A DNA stretch of 64,000 nt from Octopus vulgaris (lineage: Eukaryota): assembly GCA_951406725.2 (NCBI GenBank), contig OX597820.1, forward strand, positions 49,786,001 through 49,850,000, given 5' to 3'. Position numbers and translations under genes: made by a program. Positions 2,773 through 62,371 of the stretch are shown piece by piece; the stretch's first letter is position 1, and every line of letters begins with the position of its first letter. The notes below the pieces were generated by a model that saw only the letters and a list, made by a program, of their open reading frames with translations, searched no databases and was not told the origin of the DNA.

Positions 2773-4183
2773 CTAGTTTCAGCTTATGAGCTGTGGCCAT
2801 GCTGGGGCACCGCCATTTGGTGTTGCTACTTGGTTTCACTTCATGGAGGCTTTCTAGCAACTGCTATTTGGTGCATGAGAGAGTTCGATGCAGCTGCCCT
2901 CATCTGCCCCTCCTGCCGTGAAGTTGGTTCATCTGGGACACCTGACAGGAAGAGATCCAGCTTCATTTTAAAGACATCTGTATCCACCCCATGCAGGTCT
3001 CTCAGGTTCTTCGGGAGGATATTGAAGAGCTGTGGGCCTCGGAAGCCCAGGCTATCACAGAATCTTGTCCTACATCTTGATGGCAGGTTTGGAGTCCTAG
3101 GCACCACGCAGTGGGGCCCAGTTCTGGCCTTTGCGTAACTCTCGATGCCAAAGTTCAGGACACTTCCCTCCAGGATCTTCCAGATGTATATTATGGCATA
3201 TCTTTCCCGCCTACGCTCCAGGGAATATAATTTTAATCTCTTGAGTCTTTCCCAGTAGCTCATATGCTGCACAGAGGCAATCTTCTTCGTGTAGCTTCGT
3301 TGGATCGCCTCAAGTTCTGTGATCAACTTGACACTGGATGGTGACCATAGCTGAGAGCAATAGTCAAAGTGGCTTAGGACAAGTGTCTTCCAGAGGACCA
3401 TCATGGTTTCTTGTTCTCTTGTTCTAAAGGTTCTAAGAATCCATCCAGCCAGCCGTCTACATTTCATTGTCAGTTTAGCAACATGTACATGAAAGGTCGC
3501 GTCATCACTCATGTGAATACCCAGGTCACGCACTGATTGTGCCTCTGGGATTGCAATCCCTCCGGGTCCAGTGTATTCATTGGGTATTGCATTCAGTTTT
3601 GCATGCTGATAGTATAAAGCTTGAAACTTTCCAGCATTGAACTGCATGCTATTCTTTTCAGCCCACTTGTATATTTCGTCCAGCTCACATTGCAGGTGTT
3701 TAGTGTCCTCAGGGTTCTGTATTGCCTGTGAAACTTTTGTATCATCTGCATAACTTGTGATCGTGGCTCTCTGCGTGGCTGAGGGCATGTCTGAGAGGAC
3801 CATTATGAACAGTAGTGGTCCCAGAACAGTGCCCTGCGGAACACCGCTCACTATTTGTGTGTTAATGGAGGTGGCCCCATTGGCTACTACCACCTGACTT
3901 CTATCCTTCAGAAAGTCATGAAGCCATTCTCCCAGTTTTCCAACTATGTTGAGATCACGCAGTTTGTGACATATCATTCCATGATCGACTTTATCAAAGG
4001 CCTTTGCAAAGTCGAGATATATCACTTCCACATTTGAGTGGTTGAGCAGCCGTTTCAGCACCCAGTCATAGTGTTGTAGGAGCTGAGTTAAACAGCTTCT
4101 CCCTGGTCGGAAACCATGTTGGGTGTCGGGCAGCAAGTCATTCTCTTCAAGGAAGGTGATCAGCTTCCTTCTGACTATTCGTT
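2741..4183 (-). mobile_element. 5'-truncated CR1/L2-group LINE with (AATC)n tail
   Basis: Contains an RT ORF, a short 3' UTR and a (GATT)n tail on the plus strand at 2741-2772; inserted between (TA)n tracts. Confidence 0.9.
2841..4136 (-). CDS. LINE ORF2 fragment: reverse transcriptase and C-terminal region (431 aa, uninterrupted)
   Basis: Motifs [61 protein letters not shown]; the endonuclease domain is missing (truncated). Confidence 0.9.
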
Positions 4184-4195
4184 CACAAATTTATA

Positions 4196-8059: not shown

Positions 8060-8330
8060 GATGGACTGCTAAGTTACGGGGAGGTAAACATACTAACACA
8101 GTTTGTTAAGTGGTAGCGAGGGAGAAATGCAGACACAAAAACATGCAGACCCCCCCCCCCCAGATACACATGCATATAGGAGAGGCTTTTTTCAGTCTCC
8201 GACTACCAAATCCTCTCTTAAGCTTTTGGTCGACCCGAGGCTATAGTACAGGACACTTACTCAAGGTATCACGCAGTGAAACAGAACCCAGAGCCTTGAG
8301 GCTGGGAAGCATTCTTGTTACCACATACTC
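8060..8330 (-). mobile_element. Degenerate copy of the abundant CORE-type SINE (family B)
   Basis: CTGCTAAGTTACGGGGAGGTAAAC...CTACCAAATCC...GAGGCTATAG...GACACTTACTCAAGG matches the intact copies at 35321 and 47557. Confidence 0.75.
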
Positions 8331-25870: not shown

Positions 25871-26159
25871 CAATAAAATAACACGATCCTAGGCCTCTTT
25901 TGTATTTTCTCTATCGTAGGCGAAACGCGTCCCCGTTTTTGGCAATAGTCTTACCAAAATTAAACTATCTGTGCGCAAAATCAGCATATATATATATATA
26001 TATATATATTTACATATACGACGGGCTTCTTTCAGTTTCCGTCTACCAAATCCACTCACAAGGCTTTGGTCGGCCCGAGGCTATAGTGGAAGACACTTGC
26101 TCAAGGTGCCACGCAGTAGGACTGAACCCGGAACCATGTGGTTGGTAAGCAAGCTACTT

Positions 26160-27525
26160 TATTCTATAAAATTTGTCATTATAGACAGTACAAAGAATGT
26201 GTAGCTTTGCGGGCTGGACAAACACATTAATGAATGAAAATGAATTAAAATGAATAAATGAGAGACGAAACCCAACACCCGCCGATTGGATTTTTGACTT
26301 CGGGAGAGTGGAGCTCTTCTGCTTTTTCCAGAGTCTCTCCCCCACCTCCCGAATCCTTAGGTTCCTTCGGCGGGCAACTATTGTTGCCCGCCTTCTTCCT
26401 TTTTAATCCTTTTTGGGTTGAGGAGGCTGAAACCTCCTCGACCACATCCACCTCTCCCTTTGACCGAGTCGGGGAGGTGGCATCCAGTGACTGTTGCAGT
26501 ACCTTACCATGGTCCTGGGGCAGTTCCCTCAAGTATCACTGGATACCTGCAGCCAGCCATTTAAAAAAATCTGGATATACCAGATCTGTTGCGGCCGATG
26601 TTTGACACTTCCCAATCGACCGCCGGCAATACCCTTACATTTAAGAGCCTGGGCCTGCTATCCTCCAGTCCCCGTCGGATGGTATCTTCAATCCAACCCG
26701 CTTCGGTGCCTGAGGGTACCCACATACCCAGGCTATTATTAATTTCCTTCCGCAATACGACGGGGGGGGGGGGCAGAATTTCATTGCCTTCTAAAGGCTG
26801 ACTTGCAAACTGGCGAGCCTTTTCCCCGTTGACACCACGGGATATGAATTTCACAGAGGATAAATAGTCTTTCAGTTCATTTTCTATAACTGGTTTTGAG
26901 ACGACGGTGATGGAATCAAGAACTTTAGAATAAGTTCTAAGCACCACCGTCCTCTCCTCCATATCTTTTAACCACTGCTTAGGTGGGTTAATTTCCCACT
27001 CTAAGATAGAGTTCTTTTTAATTTCCTTCTCTGCCATGTCCAAAAAAAAAAACAGTTCAAAAGACAGTCTGCCAAAAATTGAACCGAATAAAAATAAAAC
27101 AAAAAAAGAGAAGGAAAGGAAACTGAAATTAAAATAATGAAAAGAATGAACCAAAATTTAGAAAGAAAGAAAAAGTAGAAGAAGGGAAAAATAAAGGAAA
27201 AAACTCACAAATAGAACAGACAGGTCATCCTTTGTATAGTACTCCAAACAGGTAATCCAATTAGGTTATTCTTGAAGTACTTCAGTTCGTAAAAAATTCC
27301 AGTTTTTCTGGCGAGATACACCCACTAGAATTTACAAAAAGAATATTCAAACAAAAATTCTCAATTCACCGTTATGGTGATGAGAACACAATATTTTGCT
27401 CGCTTTTGCTAGCCATAATTGACAATTTTTCTTTTTGTTCTTTTTTCTATTCACGGAGCCCAAAACTCACATCTTCTCATTGTAACAGTCCAGACCAACT
27501 AGTGTTGCATTCTGGGTAACCGGAA
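26160..27525 (-). mobile_element. ORF1-only (gag-like) non-autonomous retroposon, copy 1, internally deleted
   Basis: 15-bp TSD GTAAGC(A/C)AGCTACTT at 26145-26159 and 27526-27540; protein homologous to 59515-60776 (LEWE..PPKQW...RTVVLRTYS, KFISRGVN, GTEA.WIE.TIRRGL, MAG.RYPVILEG). Confidence 0.85.
26245..27037 (-). pseudogene. Tx1/L1-like ORF1 protein, frameshifted, zinc knuckle deleted
   Basis: Starts MAEKEIKKNSILEWEINPPKQW; ILEG is joined directly to NCPR, removing the CCHC motif seen in copy 2. Confidence 0.75.
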
Positions 27526-29937
27526 GTAAGCCAGCTACTTACCATACAGCCACTCCTGCGCCTATGGTGATAATGAATGCATTTTTCACACTTTGGTCCA
27601 CTGCTCCAAAGTCAGACGAGGATGTTAAATAAAGGAAGCTAAATTTTTTGGTGACAAATCAAGAGAGTGTTTATACAAAGATACTGACGTGATAGGTGAA
27701 AACGAATAGCTTATCAGGATTCAGGTCAAAAAATTGCTTCAAAAGCACCTGTCTATTCAACAGAAACATTTCCGTACATAAATTCTGTAGGACTATATAC
27801 CAATTTCTATATACTAATTTCAAATGACTGCTGTGTGAAAGCGATACTGAAAAACCGAGTCACAAAACATTGAGTGTTTTCAGAGAACATTACGACATTG
27901 GAGAGTAGAGTTAACAACAGGAGAAAGATGCAGTTAAGTACTTTCTCAAGTATTTGTCAACCATGAGAATTGCTATATTTACTTCTCTTGAAACACTCTT
28001 GTGAGTCTTGAACATTTTTATTAAGTGTGAACATTTGTGTTCACTCTCAGAATATGTAGGCATGTTATCGGCGACAGAATCAACGGCACACTTGATATGT
28101 GATGATGATGATGATGATGACGACGACGACGACGATGATAATAATCATAAGGATGATGATAATGATGATGAGGAGGACGACGACAATGACGATGATGTCA
28201 CTGGCTTAGTCACTAACCAGTAATGATCTTAGTCCATCTAGCTGTAAATAGGTGTCATAGTATTTTACAGTTGTTCCTTATACTGCGTCCCAGAGCCGAG
28301 CACTTAAATTTCTGCAGCTTAGTCTAGCTATGAATAAGTAGGGTCCATACAGCTATAGTTCCCTGTATGATATTATAGGTTGTGTTGGCGTTTTTATTGT
28401 GGAAACGAGTAACTCTAAGTTTGATATGAAAATGGTAGACTGTAGCATTCCTTTCTCATTCACTAAATGCTGCTGGGGAAAAATTACGTAGTGGAAAAAG
28501 ATACTCATACAGAATTTGAAACTTCCAAAAAATGTTACCATCTCTTTTTAGGCAACTTATTTGCCTTCATCCCTGATCAGAAACCTAACTTATGTGATCG
28601 TTCTCAACACAAAACTATGCTTAAAATGAGAGCATATCACACTGGAAATTAGAACTCATGTCATCCTTCTTTGTATTAACCTCATTCTTTTCTATTGTAG
28701 CTTCACTATGTAGTGATTTTTGTGGTGCTAATTTGTAGAAAGGCTTGTCTTAGAACTCTATAAAATTCTCTGTTGTTCAGGCGCTACAAAGTCGAGGCAT
28801 TTTGATCGGAAACATAAACATCCTTCTTCAGTGAACGACGGTAAGCATGTTGTTTCTGGACACCACCAGTTCATCAGATCTATGCGTCTCTTCGACCACT
28901 AAAATTTTGAGTTAAATGATAATTTAACATCAGCGTCATGTAGTAGATGTCTTTAGACAGATATTTACAAATATTGCGTTTACAATTCGCTTTTCCTTGC
29001 CAAGACATTTCGCCAGCGACTGTCATTTCTTGCTTGACTAAATTATTTTCTATTTCCTGTTTACCTGGTTCTGTTCACTAAGACCCAGGAAACGCTTTCG
29101 TTTGTTCTGAACAAATATCTTTCTTACATGAGGAAGGTGTAGCTAATAGCTACTCAATTACATATTAGCCAACTAGGAATGAGTAATTTAAACGTTATGC
29201 TGTTATTATCTAAAGATATCATAGCATCAACTCACGAAAAAAAAATCTACCTATCTTCTCATGGGAAACAACTTCTGACAGAAGGCTTGTATTCAGTGCG
29301 ACCCTGATTTTGTATAGAAACAAATCAGAAACCTCATGAACACATCTCCCCTTTCTAGAAAAATGGTTACAGGAATGAATATGCCGCTTTCACTTGTGTT
29401 TCCTGAATGGCATTGTGATTGAGGTATATACATAAGAAGGATAACTTCTTAGTCTACCATGCTGATCTACTGGAATCTTATTGTCAGTGCATGCACATAC
29501 ACATTCCCAGTAGTTGAGAAGAACCTGAAAGACTAAACTTCTTTAGAGGATACCTGAGATAAAGTAGAATTTAGGTATGACGAATGTTCTCTAAATGAAA
29601 GCATGTATATTACAGAAAGTCGATTTGATTTGTCTATTCGGCGACTTGATGACGCATCAACAAAGAAAGCCGATTAAATACGATAAACTGTGAACCAATC
29701 AACTATCAATACATCTGGTATTGTCTCGTTTTACTTGCATTTCAAAATCGACTGAAGTCAGAAAACCCCTCTTTGAAGGAGATATGAAATTTGTACTTCT
29801 TTGAAATAAATAAATGTGTCCTGAAGAAGTCTCAAAACCTCTGGAAAGAACATTGTATACGTACATGTACATACATAATACATATTACAAGGTCAGGTTT
29901 ATACCTGCAATATTCATGCATGTATATATATATATAT

Positions 29938-35281: not shown

Positions 35282-35320
<39 letters not shown>

Positions 35321-35322
<2 letters not shown>

Positions 35323-35720
35323 TCTTTTACACTTTTACTTGTTTCAGTCATTTGACTGCGGCCATGCTGGAGCACCAGCTTTAATCGAGCAACTCAACCC
35401 CGGGACTAATTCATTGTAAGCCCAGTACTTATTCTATCGGTCTCTTTTGCTGAACCGCTAAGTGACGGGTACATAAACACACCAGCATCGGTTGTTAAGC
35501 AATGCTAGGGAGACAAACACAAACATACACGCACACACACATATATATACACATACATACGACGGGCTTCTTTCAGTTTCCATCTACCAAATCCACTCAC
35601 AAGGCTTTGGTCGGTCCGAGGCTATAGTAGAAGACACTTGCCCAAGGTGCCACGCAGTGGGACTGAATCTGGAACCATGTGGTTGGTAAACAAGCTACTT
35701 ACCACACAGCCACTCCTGCG

Positions 35721-35723
<3 letters not shown>
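35321..35723 (-). mobile_element. Full-length tRNA-derived CORE-type SINE (family B) with internal microsatellite
   Basis: Minus strand AGGCGCAGGAGTGGCTGTGTGGTAAG (A box)...GATTCAGTCCC (B box)...CACCTTGGGCAAGTG (CORE-like)...3' (GTAAAAGA)n-type tail. Confidence 0.9.
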
Positions 35724-45709: not shown

Positions 45710-47105
45710 CACGGGTACGTAGAAACTCCGGGGTGGTGTCCGGCGTGCTGAAAGACCACTGGGAGTGAGGCGCCCCTCAGCTTTTGTTAAAGCACGTCTC
45801 TAGGAGAAGGTCACTCTGATATAAAACCAGATATGCAGGGAATGGCATTGAATATTTTGGGGGTCTTTGGTTTGTGCTAGAGATCACGGCGCTCCCACAT
45901 CCTTGAGCCTGCGACTTATATTGGTACCAGACATCTTGCTCCAGCTTGTCTCTGGATAATGTCAATAAAGGGGAGAGGGTCTATGAGGTGTTGTGCAAGC
46001 CTTATTGGACCTAAAACTCTGCACAGGCATTGCCGACCTCTTTTTTTATTCTCTATATATCTATCTTATTTTTAGTATATATTTTCTTCATTTTTAGTAC
46101 ATATATATTTTTTTTTATTCGGAAGGTGGTGAAGCATGCCGACCTGACGGGTTGGAAGCATGTAGTCAGCGACCTGCACGTAGGCGGCCCATGCTAGATA
46201 TAAAGTCGTCTCCTTGTCGCCCAAGACAATGGTAGGATTCGGTTGCTGCATGGGTGTCTGAGCAGCTCCATTTGGAGAGGGCACTGCTCACCTGGAGTCC
46301 GGGGAGGTTCTAGAAAAGGTGAACCAAAAATTGCCTGTCTTTCCATATCTGGTCAGTTTAGCGATTCGTGAGCTGAACCGCTATAAAATTGATATAGCTG
46401 CACTCTCAGAAACTTGTATAGAAGGTGATGGTCAGCTTGAGGAAGTAGGAGGCGGATGCACCTTTTTTTGGAAAGGAAGGCAGAAGGAGGAGCGCAGAGA
46501 GGCTGGTGTTGGTTTTACAGTCCGATCTGATATCCTGAAGAAGTTGGAAGAGTTCCCTGTTCCTATAAATGAACGTATAATGACCTTACGGTTGCACTTG
46601 AAAGGTAAGCGGTTTGCTACTCTGATAAGTGCCTATGCACCTACTTTGACTAGATGTGATGAAGATAAAATAATCTTTTATACCCAGCTGAGAGCCATAC
46701 TTAGAAAAATCCCCAATTCTGATAAAGTCATTCTAGTGGGGGATTTTAATGCCAGAGTTGGAACAGACTGGCAAACATGGAACTCTGTAGGACGTTTTGG
46801 AGTAGGGAAAATGAATAGCAATGGTCTCATGCTACTGGAGCTTTGCGAAGAACATGGACTTTACATTGCAAGTACTCATTTTGTGCACAAAGGTGATCAC
46901 ACAACAACATGGATGCATCCAAGGTCCAAAGTTTGGCACTTGCTGGATTACGTCATCATCCGCAAGCGCGAAATTTATGACATTTGTAATGCCAAGTCCT
47001 TGCATGGATCAGAATGTTGGACAGACCACAGTCTGGTGCGAGCAAAGTTCCGAATGGTGATTAGGGCGAAAGAGAGAAGAGGACCAGTCCTGTGTGTCCT
47101 GTAGC
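45710..47105 (+). mobile_element. RTE-clade LINE, 5' part (UTR + endonuclease), RT missing
   Basis: Higher-GC block bounded by (TATG)n-like tracts that contains the APE ORF. Confidence 0.75.
46319..47104 (+). CDS. Apurinic-like endonuclease domain of RTE LINE ORF (261-aa open fragment)
   Basis: IDIAALSET, GVGF, ERIMTLRL, ISAYAPT, GDFNARVG, TWMHPRSK.WHLLDYVI, TDHSLV. Confidence 0.88.
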   Translation: MNQKLPVFPYLVSLAIRELNRYKIDIAALSETCIEGDGQLEEVGGGCTFFWKGRQKEERREAGVGFTVRSDILKKLEEFPVPINERIMTLRLHLKGKRFATLISAYAPTLTRCDEDKIIFYTQLRAILRKIPNSDKVILVGDFNARVGTDWQTWNSVGRFGVGKMNSNGLMLLELCEEHGLYIASTHFVHKGDHTTTWMHPRSKVWHLLDYVIIRKREIYDICNAKSLHGSECWTDHSLVRAKFRMVIRAKERRGPVLCVL

Positions 47106-47307: not shown

Positions 47308-47556
47308 TGTGTGAAATTTGATTTGGTATTTCTAAATTGAATTTTTTCCCTGCAAGTTTGGATTTATATTCCCTCAAATAATTATATATATATATATAAA
47401 ACAAAGAAGATGAGGAGAATGAAGGATTTGAATATTCAAACTTTATGTTTATTTCCAATTAGTTTATTCATGCGCAACGATTTATGCATTTTTAGTACGA
47501 TCTTTTCAGGGCATATCATTATGAATAAAGTAAGTGGAAACAACATAAAGTTGTAT

Positions 47557-47967
47557 ACTCTTTTACTCTTTTACTAGTTTCAGTCATTTGACTGCGGCCA
47601 TGCTGGAGCACCGCCTTTAGTCGAGCAAATCGACCCCGGGACTTATTCTTTATAAGCCCAGTACTTATTCTATCAGTCTCTTTTTGCCGAACCGCTAAGT
47701 GACAGGGACGTAAACACACCAGCATCGGTTGTCAAGCGATGTTAGGGAGACAAACACAGACACACAAACATATACACACACATACATATATATACATATA
47801 TACTACAGGCTTCTTTCAGTTTCCGTCTACCAAATCCACTCACAAGGCATTGGTCGGCCCGGGGGCTATAGCAGAAGACACTTGCCCAAGATGCCACGCA
47901 GTGGGACTGAACCCGGAACCATGTAGTTGGTTAGCAAGCTACTTATCACACAGCCACTCCTGCGCCT
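47557..47967 (-). mobile_element. Full-length SINE family B (uninterrupted reference copy)
   Basis: Collinear with 35321-35723; shows the empty target site GTTAGCAAGCTACTT once. Confidence 0.9.
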
Positions 47968-48154
47968 GTTTAAATTCTTCAATTTGGTTATTATAAATAT
48001 TGTACTTTACACTCTAAGTAGTCAAGAAATAAACTGGAACTTCGGATGGGAGCTAAAGAAAGATTACCATAAAAAAAAACATAAGGAACTAGCCTTCGCA
48101 TTTTACTCAGAGAAATTCAGTATCTGCCTGACACACACGCACACACCTACACAC

Positions 48155-48305
48155 GTATATATAGACGATAGGCTTCTTTCTGTTTCTGGTTACAAAATCC
48201 GAGGCCATGGTAGAAGACACTTGTCGAAGGTAACACTCAGAGGAACTGAACCCGGAACCATGCAGTCGGGGAGCAAACTTCTCACCACACAGCCACACCT
48301 ATGCG
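48155..48305 (-). mobile_element. SINE family B, degenerate 5' half
   Basis: AGAAGACACTTGTCGAAGG...ACTGAACCCGGAACCATG...ACCACACAGCCAC. Confidence 0.75.
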
Positions 48306-58964: not shown

Positions 58965-59365
58965 TCTCTCTTTTTACTCTTTTACTTGTTTCAGTCATTT
59001 CGCAGTGGCCATGCTGGAGCACCGCCTTTAGTCGAGCAAATCGACCCCAGGACTTGTTTTTTGTAAGCCTAGTACTTATTATATCAGTCTCTTTTGCCGA
59101 ACCGCTACGTTACGGGGACGTAAACACACCAGCATCGGTTGTCAAATGAGGTTGGTGGGGGGGGGACAAACACAGACACACAAACACGTACACACACATA
59201 TACATATATATATATACATATATACGACAGGCTTCTTTCAGTTTCCCTCTACCAGATCCACTCACAAGGCTTTGGTCGGCCCGAGGTTTTAGTAGAAGAC
59301 ACTTGCCCAAGATGCCACGCAGTGGGACTGAACCCGGAACCATGTGGTTCGTAAGCAAGCTACTT

Positions 59366-61298
59366 TATTTTAAATAATTTGCCACTAGGGCAGCACACAG
59401 AGTAGTAGCTACGGGCTGGACAAGGACATTAATGGATGATGGTGGTGGTTGATGAAGATGGTGATGGGAGAAGTCGAAAGCGCCCGCCGACTTTTGCTTC
59501 TCTAAAACAATGTTTCAATAAATACATTTAATAAACAATGAAGCAAATTGTCTTGCCGCCTGCAGACAATTCTGCGACGACAAGTCGGGGCCTGCAAAGA
59601 GAAAGGTAAAGTCTTTCTTTTCAAAGGTCTCTGCGACCCTTGACAAAGTATCTTCTGTTACTTTTTCCGCAGCTACCTGCGGAGGCCATAACGGACTCCT
59701 TGAGCCGACCGTGTCCTTACGCTCTCGGTCACCCAAGCCATTCAAGAATCTTTCAACCTCCTCTCCCTTGTGGTAAAGGAGGAGAAGCATCTCCTCTTCA
59801 CAGAGAGGGACCTCACACTGCTCCGTCGGTGGCACACTTCCCACTGGCGGAGCCTTGTCCGCGGGTGGCACACATCCCACCCACGGCTCCGTCGGCGACA
59901 CAGAAACGTCAGTCGTCCGACCTCTCCTTTTTCTCCTCCTTCTTTTGGGGGAGACTGCTGACCCAGGGGACTCCGTCACCAGACACGGGGGATTGCTATC
60001 CCCCTTTGCCCCCTGAGCGTTCTTTGGCGGGCAACCATTGTTGCTCGCCTTTCTCTTTCTTTTCGTGGAGGCAACCTCCTCCACGACTTCCATCGTCTCC
60101 CCCTCCAATGAGGGGGCGGCGGGCGCCTTTTCCCCTCTCTGCTCCGGGGTACCACTACGGCCCCTGGGACAATTCTTCCTGATATGTCCGGGCTTCAGGC
60201 ACAGGTGACACTTGGGGGGGCGACCCTCGAGTATCACCGGGTACCTGTGCCCAGCCATTCTCAGGAAGTCCGGGAATTTCATTTCCCCCACGGCTATCGG
60301 TGTCCACAGGGTCAAAGTTGCCCTCGACCCCTGCCAGGCGACCGCGGGAGCCACCTTCACACTCAGCAGTCTGGGTCCGCTATCCCCCAGGCCTCGCCGG
60401 ATGGTCTTCTCGATCCATTCCGCCTCCGTGCCCGGGGGCAGCCCACACACCCAGGCTATTTTCACTTTTCTGCCACAATACGAGGGGAGGAACAAAATTT
60501 CCTCTCCCTCCAGTGGCTCGCTAGCAAATCTGCTAGCTTCCTCGGGGGTACCAAACAGCAACCAGACCGTTGCAAATTTACTCCCCGAGAAATAAATTTT
60601 ATAGTTGGCAGGTAGTCCCCCAACTCTTTCTCTATAGTATTCTTGTCGAAGAGGGCAATGGCTCCACGCGACCTAGAATAGGTTCGTAGGACCACCGTCC
60701 TCTTCTCAAGACTTTCAATCCACTGCTTGGGTGGGACGACCTCCCATTCCAAAGCGGTGGTTTCTTTTGTTGCCATGTTTTTTTTGTTTTTTTTTAAATA
60801 AATGTATTTAGAATAAAACTAAAAAACGAGAAGAAAAGGAAATCCGAAGAATGTCACAATGAAAAACGGAGAGAGTCAAATAAAGTTGAAAAGAAAGTCA
60901 AATAAAGTTAAAAAGAAAGTCAAAAACACAGCAAAATCCTTTTGGCCATTTGGTACTCCCGGCCTAAATCGAACCAGGATCGCACAACTTCCACAAAAAT
61001 TGGTGTAAAATTGGTAGTTCTTCACAGCACCATACAATTTTCACAATTCGAAGACGGATACGCCCCCCAAAATTTTCTCAGCGAGAAAAATATATCTGCC
61101 ACATGTCGGCAGAATCAGAATTCTGAATCCAGTAGGACTTCCTGCATGTAGAAAATAATTCTCAACAAAAACTCCCACTGGACCCAGAAAACAGAATCTT
61201 ACCTTACATGGGGCTTCCAAAGTTTCAATTCAAGACGGCTTCAAAAGCACATCTTCACTGCTTCAGTAGCAAACACAACACTGACTCGCACATGCGCA
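59366..61298 (-). mobile_element. ORF1-only (gag-like) non-autonomous retroposon, copy 2
   Basis: TSD GT(A/T)AGCAAGCTACTT at 59351-59365 and 61299-61313; ~520-bp 5' UTR, one ORF, ~150-bp 3' UTR ending ...TTTAAAATA; no RT or endonuclease. Confidence 0.88.
59515..60776 (-). CDS. Tx1/L1-like ORF1 nucleic-acid-binding protein with CCHC zinc knuckle (one frameshift near 60575)
   Basis: ORFs 60462-60776 and 59515-60561 join into ~420 aa; FPDFLRMAGHRYPVILEGRPPKCHLCLKPGHIRKNCP (CX2CX4HX4C); basic patches KRKRK and KRRRRKRR. Confidence 0.8.
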
Positions 61299-61769
61299 GT
61301 TAGCAAGCTACTTACCACACAACCACTCCTACGCCTATATATATGTATACTTATGTACAAACACATACCCACTCTCACCTCTCTCTCTCTTTCTCTCTTT
61401 CTCTCTATCTCCTATGTTTCTCTTTCTTCCCCCTCTCTTTGTTTCTCTTTCTCTCCTCTATCTCACTTCCACTCTTCTCCCTGATTCTTCACTCACTCTT
61501 TTTTCGTATGTGTTCCTCCCGTTTCGTCCTTCCTTATTTCTCCTCTTCTTTGCAAAACCTTTTTGACGCCACGTAACCAATCCGTTTCCTGTTGGAGCAG
61601 TAATCGTGTTAGCTTTCTCTCAGCCATGGGTTCCTCTTATTTTTCCATCATTCTTCCTATCCTGTTCTCTGTCTCTCTACTTTCCTCTTCAAGTCCAGTA
61701 GGACGTTTACCGTTTGCGATGCTTCTGCGTATGTCATGTCTCAAGCTGTCTCATTGCTCTCTCTCTCTT

Positions 61770-61900: not shown

Positions 61901-62363
61901 GTACGTTTAAATATTTGTTGTGCAAGATTTTTTATGTGAAGTCGTGTGTTGAAACAGATATTGTTATATTTCGGAATGGTCATTTTGCCAGTTTAGCCAA
62001 TAAAAACACACGCACTATATATTTGGTGTTATTTTGCTTCATTGCTATTTATTTTTTACATTAATCTTAATCTTATTTCGGCCAGATTTCTTTCGTCACA
62101 CTCCTGTGACCGCATCAGTGGTCCTTTGTTTTCTTCTTTCTTATTTGTGTCTCTCCTTACTAACCGTAGTAAGGAGAGACACAAATAAGAAAGAAGAAAA
62201 CAAAGGACCACTGATGCGGTCACAGGAGTGTGACGAAAGAAATCTGGCCGAAATAAGATTAAGATTAATGTAAAAAATAAATAACAATGAAGCAAAATAA
62301 CACCAAATATATAGTGCGTGTGTTTTTATTGGCTAAACTGGCAAAATGACCATTCCGAAATAT

Positions 62364-62371
<8 letters not shown>
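61900..62371. mobile_element. Fold-back element: 414-bp palindrome (205-bp arms, 4-nt loop) plus ~58-bp unpaired extension, in (TA)n
   Basis: 61958-62162 vs 62167-62371, one mismatch seen; loop ACCG. Confidence 0.93.

Follow-up and report, generated by a model that had tools for sequence, protein, structure and literature searches.

A 64-kb stretch of the Octopus vulgaris genome (OX597820.1 49,786,001–49,850,000, called the window here; all positions are relative to it) contains an insert, copy 1, within a short interspersed nuclear element (SINE), and a longer insert, copy 2, at the same base of another copy of that SINE. We give a probability of about 0.68 to the reading that copy 1 is a decayed, non-autonomous derivative of a site-specific long interspersed nuclear element (LINE), most likely of the Tx1 clade, that carries open reading frame 1 (ORF1) only and is HAL1-like in that respect. 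Sequence-specific insertion with a target-site duplication of 15 bp at the same base was found in both of the two copies, a small sample, and the inserts have diverged from each other far more than the SINEs that host them. The parts of copy 1 and of its host SINE (host 1) are listed below, P0001 being a related protein from Octopus sinensis.

26160-27525 (-): copy 1 insert, 1366 bp, in the same sense as its host SINE
27541..27563 (-): 5' head of the host SINE upstream of the insertion, from blastn against the empty SINE 47556-47967
27552-27542 (-): A-box-like motif in the host 1 head, from its motif position
27526..27540 (-): head-side copy of the 15-bp duplication, with one private mismatch, from the 15-mer search
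27038..27525 (-): copy 1 5' untranslated region (UTR), 488 nt, from alignment with copy 2
26293..27037 (-): copy 1 broken ORF1, ATG at 27037, with two RNA recognition motifs (RRMs), the remnant of one CCHC knuckle, and a basic low-complexity tail
26526..26527 (-): site of a 49-nt loss with three of the four knuckle ligands gone; the segment is present in copy 2 and P0001
26294..26368 (-): 75 nt in place of ~530 nt in copy 2 (the stop-free C-terminal extension); boundaries approximate
26160..26293 (-): copy 1 3' UTR and tail, kept in copy 2, with an AATA end and no poly(A)
26158..26163 (-): junction AATAAA, with four bases from the element followed by the first two of the target; no other sense AATAAA lies in 26145-27540
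26145..26159 (-): tail-side copy of the 15-bp duplication, 15/15 identical to the tail-side copy of copy 2
25985..26144 (-): host SINE body of copy 1, with a B-box-like motif at 26128-26118

Copy 2, its host (host 2), and two SINE copies that served as empty-site controls are as follows.

59366..61298 (-): copy 2 insert, 1933 bp, with 5' UTR, ORF1, and a 150-nt 3' UTR
58972..59365 (-): host 2 SINE body and tail, including the tail-side duplication 59351-59365
61299..61336 (-): host 2 SINE head, including the head-side duplication 61299-61313
47556..47967 (-): uninterrupted SINE, empty-site control, head variants as in host 2
35320..35723 (-): uninterrupted SINE, empty-site control, head variants as in host 1

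The shared insertion site

An earlier note on this DNA had described inserts of 1366 bp and 1933 bp that split a SINE at the same position and in the same orientation with the same 15-bp duplication, and the coordinates above bear out both lengths. The placement was confirmed by a search with the 15-mer, which has six matches in the window when up to 2 mismatches are allowed (26145, 27526, 59351, 61299, 35686, and 47930), the last two lying one each in the two uninterrupted SINE copies. Both junctions of both inserts fall at the same SINE base, and both inserts are on the minus strand in the sense of their hosts. The duplication is the same between inserts on the tail side, but within each insert its two copies agree at 14/15 positions, the mismatch being on the head side both times. 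The probability that a second, target-blind insertion would strike the same base and strand in one of the 5 other SINE heads is approximately 4e-5, and 2 of the 4 young SINE heads in the window are filled.

The SINE B of the note corresponds to the front part of a single SINE of ~410 bp, with full forms at 47556-47967 and 35320-35723; host 1 is missing the last ~210 nt after a microsatellite. In the empty SINE, the spacing from the A-box-like to the B-box-like motif is 43 nt, and the duplication sits between them; the head motif of host 1 is one that we take to be an A box. ARAGORN found 0 tRNA genes in the window, and neither ARAGORN nor Rfam detected a tRNA in the SINE head, the listed Rfam matches being repeat-driven and below the gathering score. 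The 3' end of the SINE matches the 3' end of a LINE fragment at 2773-4190 (-), which carries the reverse transcriptase (RT) domain RVT_1 and is presumably CR1/L2-like, at 84.8% over 46 nt. On this match, the LINE type of 2773-4190 is a candidate partner type of the host SINE. The insert tail does not match this LINE, and the two tails thus point to different partner types.

Divergence and coding content of the inserts

The two hosts differ at 15/168 sites (Jukes-Cantor [JC] distance 0.095), and any pair among the four SINE copies differs at 11-15/168. All 3 two-versus-two splits in the SINE head and body place 35320 beside host 1 and 47556 beside host 2; the SINE tail is less uniform, its splits supporting the three possible pairings at 7, 2, and 1 sites. 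The ORFs of the two inserts differ at 224/647 sites (JC 0.46). In the ORF core (157 codons), the proportions of synonymous and nonsynonymous differences were 0.715 (pS) and 0.206 (pN), with the nonsynonymous rate (dN) at 0.24 and the synonymous rate (dS) at ~2.3, a value near saturation whose lower bootstrap bound is 1.2. The core dN/dS was 0.10 with an upper bound of 0.21, a ratio of 1 or more was obtained in 0/2000 bootstraps, and core differences by codon position were 44/28/83. For the low-complexity tail (44 codons), dN/dS was 0.86, which is near neutral. These results show that the ORF1 core has been under purifying selection between the two lineages.

The proteins had been called clearly diverged, and they are, with the same residue at only 104/157 aligned core codons. 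The dN/dS analysis and the comparison of inserts with hosts, both proposed in the earlier note, found neither equal divergence nor a composite SINE-plus-insert unit: insert JC is 0.46 with dS of at least 1.2, and host JC is 0.095. Since insert divergence lies far above host divergence, the two insertions were independent and made by different subfamilies, as had been suggested. The flanks of the host SINEs were likewise unrelated, with a best head-side E value of 0.36 and tail-side matches in (TA)n only. Taken together, these data support insertion from two long-separated, selected lineages, and the value of the dead copy 1 is that it shows the site to have been hit independently by a deeply diverged lineage. 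The hosts are 5 and 10/168 sites from the four-copy majority, which, using a calibration in which JC 0.065 corresponds to ~18 million years (PMC13282606), would place them at roughly 8-17 million years, an age carried across species.

P0001, the relative used for the comparisons of the ORF1 protein, is LOC115225585 of O. sinensis (281 aa, 60% identical across 61% of the query). Word-indexed protein searches returned P0001 only, or P0001 and P0047, and an exhaustive profile search returned 87 proteins at E <=0.001, among which P0001 is the only named one. Pairwise distances among copy 1, copy 2, and P0001 are much alike (104, 103, and 103 identical of 156 core positions), and a fragment of P0009 represents a fourth lineage, with 28-29 identical residues of 42-45 positions. 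P0009 itself is a 376-aa gene model that joins a 46-residue ORF1 piece to an integrase-like piece and is probably a chimeric gene prediction. The fold of copy 1 ORF1 was read from a model of P0001, which was made from a 39-row alignment and contains two RRM folds (predicted local distance difference test [pLDDT] score 81; the single-sequence fold reached pLDDT 38). This model matched tandem-RRM proteins with a Foldseek E value of 2e-5; the first domain had a Z of 9.3 and a root-mean-square deviation (rmsd) of 2.4 over 81 residues, and the second a Z of 8.1 and an rmsd of 2.3 over 74. A single CCHC follows the RRMs, with an E value of 0.02 that is below the Pfam cut-off, and a PDB sequence search matched only the knuckle and low-complexity parts. 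Transposase_22, the type II ORF1 family, gave no Pfam match. On this evidence the protein is a type I LINE ORF1 with two RRMs and a single CCHC, a type whose variants fit Tx1 (PMC5203782). Its Atlas neighbours are RRM/CCHC clusters, ZCCHC3-type among them; a link between ZCCHC3 and Tx1 was not found in the available part of PMC9004415.

Both inserts had been described as ORF1-only, and this stands: no endonuclease (EN) or RT domain was found in the insert frames scanned, nor by tblastn with the EN and RT of the window itself, searches that diverged ORF2 scraps could escape. The ORF1 of copy 2 (ATG 60776, one frameshift near 60578, CCHC intact, stop 59515-59517) leads straight into the 150-nt 3' UTR with no trace of ORF2. 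Its C-terminal extension, 59518-59946 (-), consists of 143 stop-free codons (p 0.0006) and had no Pfam or Atlas match. That the extension is the C-terminal domain shared by relatives was not supported, a profile of 7 relatives scoring -1.4, which was reached by 73 of the 399 shuffles reported (500 made). A frame of another LINE at 46262-47104 (+) encodes an APE endonuclease (Exo_endo_phos) and has no similarity to the inserts.

Alignment with copy 2 shows that copy 1 lacks 29, 23, and 49 nt at three places and single bases at three more, and that it has gained 4 nt in a C run; together these make seven frameshifting indels, the first of them overlapping the single frameshift of copy 2 itself. 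Because the three larger segments are kept in both copy 2 and P0001, copy 1 must have lost them. The 49-nt gap shifts the frame and deletes all but the last of the four knuckle ligands, and the deletion of the zinc knuckle proposed in the earlier note is correct to that extent. It is one of seven such indels, and the loss is decay rather than a clean domain loss or a demonstrable subfamily innovation; in P0001, the first knuckle Cys is replaced. Where single-base indels fall in runs, errors of assembly may be the cause. The inserts differ in length mainly because copy 1 has 75 nt (26294..26368) where copy 2 has ~530 nt. Approximately 455 nt of the C-terminal extension are absent from copy 1, with approximate ends, as a cheap-gap alignment was fragmented. 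P0001 ends about where the coding region of copy 1 lacks the extension, so the short form may be natural. A test of whether the copy 1 indels predate the insertion gave P values from 0.004 to 0.66, depending on the rates assumed.

The UTRs had been called largely unalignable, which is true of most of the 5' UTR but not of the 3' end. The first ~310 nt of the copy 1 5' UTR could not be aligned and the last ~120 nt, which are pyrimidine-rich, could; against shuffles, the alignment score was reached by 12/300 for the first 100 nt and 40/300 for the middle. The 3' ends are 75.6% identical over 78 nt (0/300 shuffles reach this), homology extends out to about 140 nt, and conservation thus covers the last ~80-140 nt. 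The tails of the two inserts nevertheless differ by ~25%, more than the hosts do. Both inserts lack a poly(A) tail, and each has a single AATAAA in the sense direction; it spans the junction, with four bases from the element and two from the start of the target (AA). Cleavage ordinarily places the end of a transcript 10-30 nt past AATAAA; if the junction signal is used, the transcript would therefore end 10-30 nt inside the SINE and carry target sequence. A self-blast of both inserts found no terminal repeats beyond the 15 bp, and an LTR retroelement was rejected for lack of long terminal repeats. At the 5' junctions, an 8-mer spans that of copy 1 (27520-27527), which we take to be ETS-like, and a different motif lies at that of copy 2 (61288-61298), presumably NRF1-like; each is the sole match of its pattern in the window, where ~1 such 8-mer is expected, and both were noticed post hoc. 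A 9-mer common to both inserts lies ~45 nt downstream of the 5' junction, in the region where 12/300 shuffles reach the alignment score. Replacement of the 5' UTR is known in L1 (PMC5753468).

Several further observations concern the SINE family and the window. Older SINE relatives at 8065-8325 and 48140-48300 (-) have 72-80% identity, an altered target sequence, and no insert. The SINE copies 35320-35723 and 58972-61336 have (TA)n on both flanks, which suggests that the SINE prefers or seeds TA microsatellites. The minus strand holds 11 of 13 SINE-related loci (hand-picked, with microsatellite-only matches dropped; p 0.022) as well as both inserts, a bias compatible with location in an intron of a gene on the plus strand or in a PIWI-interacting RNA (piRNA) cluster read from one strand. 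A perfect palindrome at 61958-62371, with two 205-nt arms that are 100% complementary and a 4-nt spacer, could be either an artefact of fold-back in the assembly or an inversion-duplication of very recent date.

Competing explanations and a model of insertion

That one composite SINE-plus-insert unit moved or was duplicated, its shared site simply being inherited, would account for two inserts at the same site and on the same strand 33 kb apart. It is close to inconceivable here, given an insert divergence at least 10 times that of the hosts, unrelated flanks, and head/body splits that pair each host with a different empty copy (3/3) rather than the hosts with each other; a recent unit is refuted, and nothing short of wholesale gene conversion in the SINE parts would save this explanation. 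Also very improbable is an origin as processed pseudogenes of host RRM-CCHC genes, or as LTR gag remnants, caught in an endonuclease hot spot. The inserts have no introns, one relative has been annotated as a gene, though an uncharacterised one, and ZCCHC3-type proteins are among the Atlas neighbours, but there is no poly(A), the shared junctions are base-exact, the 5' UTRs have been replaced, there are no terminal repeats beyond 15 bp, and the protein has two RRMs rather than a capsid fold. It is unlikely, though less so, that no ORF1-only family propagates and that the inserts are one-off internal deletions of full-length site-specific LINEs of two old subfamilies. Copy 1 is deletion-prone (29, 23, 49, and ~455 nt), its gap spans the junction of ORF1 and 3' UTR, so that a shared ORF2-loss junction cannot be shown, and HAL1 arose several times independently (PMC5753468). 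Against this, both copies lack ORF2 with the 5' end and tail apparently kept, the ORF1 stop of copy 2 is followed directly by its 3' UTR, and no EN/RT fusion was found among 86 relatives, a weak point as ORF1 and ORF2 are normally separate proteins. If each copy were a separate deletion of an autonomous subfamily, the target preference would be old by definition.

The age of the preference is itself in question, since the inserts encode no endonuclease and the choice of site must have fallen to a trans-acting partner. Insert divergence therefore dates the riders and not the targeting, as ORF1 alone gives an element no means of cutting DNA. One recent partner could have placed both riders, and a borrowed, perhaps recent preference, no older than the host SINE copies, is compatible with the shared 3' tail and with reports of riders that follow the target of a Tx1 partner (PMC4494074). 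We consider it somewhat unlikely, because the two lineages share a terminal AATA that makes a poly(A) signal only when the AA of the target follows, and share it in tails more different than the hosts. This shared, target-dependent signal suggests that the ancestor already inserted before an AA. Divergence does not lead directly to the claim of the earlier note that the target preference is old and conserved, but the AATA end favours it, and the preference for this SINE site is probably old. The primary target might instead be a tRNA gene family, hit from the D-loop to the anticodon region, with the SINE head a later, abundant decoy. The A-/B-box-like motifs 43 nt apart with the duplication between them, tRNA-gene targeting in NeSL-related LINEs and Dada (PMC4640811, PMC8869645), and ORF lineages much older than the SINE copies all favour such a target. 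Neither ARAGORN nor Rfam sees a tRNA in the head, which would then have drifted from one, and we regard this explanation as rather unlikely.

Several points weigh against the HAL1-like reading that we prefer. Only two copies with DNA context are at hand. No partner emerged from the 86 further relatives scanned for an EN or RT domain, from a weak search for fused long forms among proteins of 1508-4305 aa, or from the insert tail, which had no other match in the window. The conserved tail has no stable hairpin common to both inserts (z -2.1 and -0.3, the folds being different), and two sequences are too few for covariation. A type I ORF1 is known from I, Jockey, R1, Tad1, and L2 as well (PMC4120745), and the clade is therefore not fixed by it. 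Finally, the selection on ORF1 may date from autonomous parents and not from an ORF1-only lineage. Tx1 and R1 are the APE-type site-specific clades (PMC4640811), O. vulgaris has 80 L1-Tx1 families (PMC13282606 supplement), and Tx1 is our best guess for the partner clade.

Under the HAL1-like reading, insertion could proceed as follows. RNA polymerase II would start at an internal promoter in the 5' UTR, which has been replaced between lineages, and the transcript would use the junction AATAAA, run at least 10-30 nt into the SINE, and so carry target sequence. ORF1p would coat the element RNA, and the endonuclease/reverse transcriptase of a partner would bind the conserved 3' tail and nick one strand of the SINE head, the antisense one, between TT and AC immediately past the A box. 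The read-through RNA would then pair with the nicked strand while reverse transcription is primed, which would give an exact 3' junction without poly(A), and a second nick 15 bp on would create the duplication. Such pairing has been reported in R2Ol (PMC6530143) and is cited for R1Bm (PMC7265360). Copy 1 or its master would have lost coding capacity by several deletions, that of the knuckle included. Since insertion separates the A and B boxes of the SINE by 1.4-1.9 kb, it should silence that SINE copy.

One detail of host 2 may bear on this model. Host 2 has 47556-type variants on both sides of the insert; its head-side duplicate ends in TAAC, but its tail-side duplicate, the one identical to that of copy 1, ends in TTAC, the other variant, which is unexpected, since in a true duplication both copies should show the variant of the host. 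A doubtful account is that long-lived ORF1-only riders have handed their 3' end to the SINE, the tail-side 15 bp being copied from read-through RNA that helps to aim the insertion; if so, each event switches off one SINE promoter. The TTAC variant, noticed post hoc, is also explained by point mutation, conversion, or a mosaic SINE.

Relation to known elements and significance

HAL1 elements are likewise non-autonomous, encode ORF1p only, and have several origins (PMC5753468), but they derive from mammalian L1 with a type II ORF1, whereas the octopus insert has type I (two RRMs and a CCHC), lies base-exact in a SINE, and lacks poly(A). The octopus element works like HAL1 and is not HAL1, which is not known to be site-specific. 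Elements of the Tx1 clade (Tx1L, Keno, Mutsu, Dewa, Kibi, Koshi, and Tx1-Mar) are sequence-specific for multicopy targets, transposons included (PMC4494074, PMC3706591). The targets named in the available text are small nuclear RNA (snRNA) and 5S rRNA genes, a tRNA spacer, microsatellites, satellites, and DNA and LTR transposons, and not a SINE head; the octopus inserts, being without ORF2, have no RT by which to place them in the clade. SINEU-3 of crocodilians is a non-autonomous rider in Mariner-N4_AMi with a 16-bp duplication; it is attributed to Tx1 machinery and shares the target of Tx1-Mar (PMC4494074), but it is short, non-coding, snRNA-derived, and has poly(A), and its target is a DNA transposon. 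The short internally deleted elements (SIDEs) of R2 and R2/R1 are comparable as site-specific riders with 14-bp duplications (PMC3414825). SIDEs differ in being short, carrying a ribozyme, and targeting 28S ribosomal DNA (rDNA), compared to a 1.4-1.9-kb insert with a selected ORF1 and a SINE target; no ribozyme was among the 150 of 328 Rfam matches listed. P0001 belongs to the same ORF1 family, with 66% identity to either copy across 156 core positions, and differs as a third lineage with its first knuckle Cys replaced.

Each ingredient is thus known: ORF1-only riders, Tx1 elements that target transposons, and read-through priming. A literature search that did not extend to Repbase or most subscription papers found no report of the combination, no ORF1-only element with site specificity, and no retrotransposon that targets a SINE head or promoter to the exact base; this family could already be recorded in Repbase, in octopus repeat libraries, or in the supplements of PMC4494074. 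The element is real, ordinary in its parts, and unusual in their combination.

These results point to a SINE-site family that is a parasite of a parasite. SINEs make up 11.6% of the O. vulgaris genome (PMC13282606), and such a family would therefore have a very large safe target; it might in turn limit SINE activity. SINE variants inside the duplicated 15 bp can distinguish an origin in target DNA from one in element RNA, which is hard with invariant rDNA targets, and the system can also be used to test why selection maintains ORF1 in riders.

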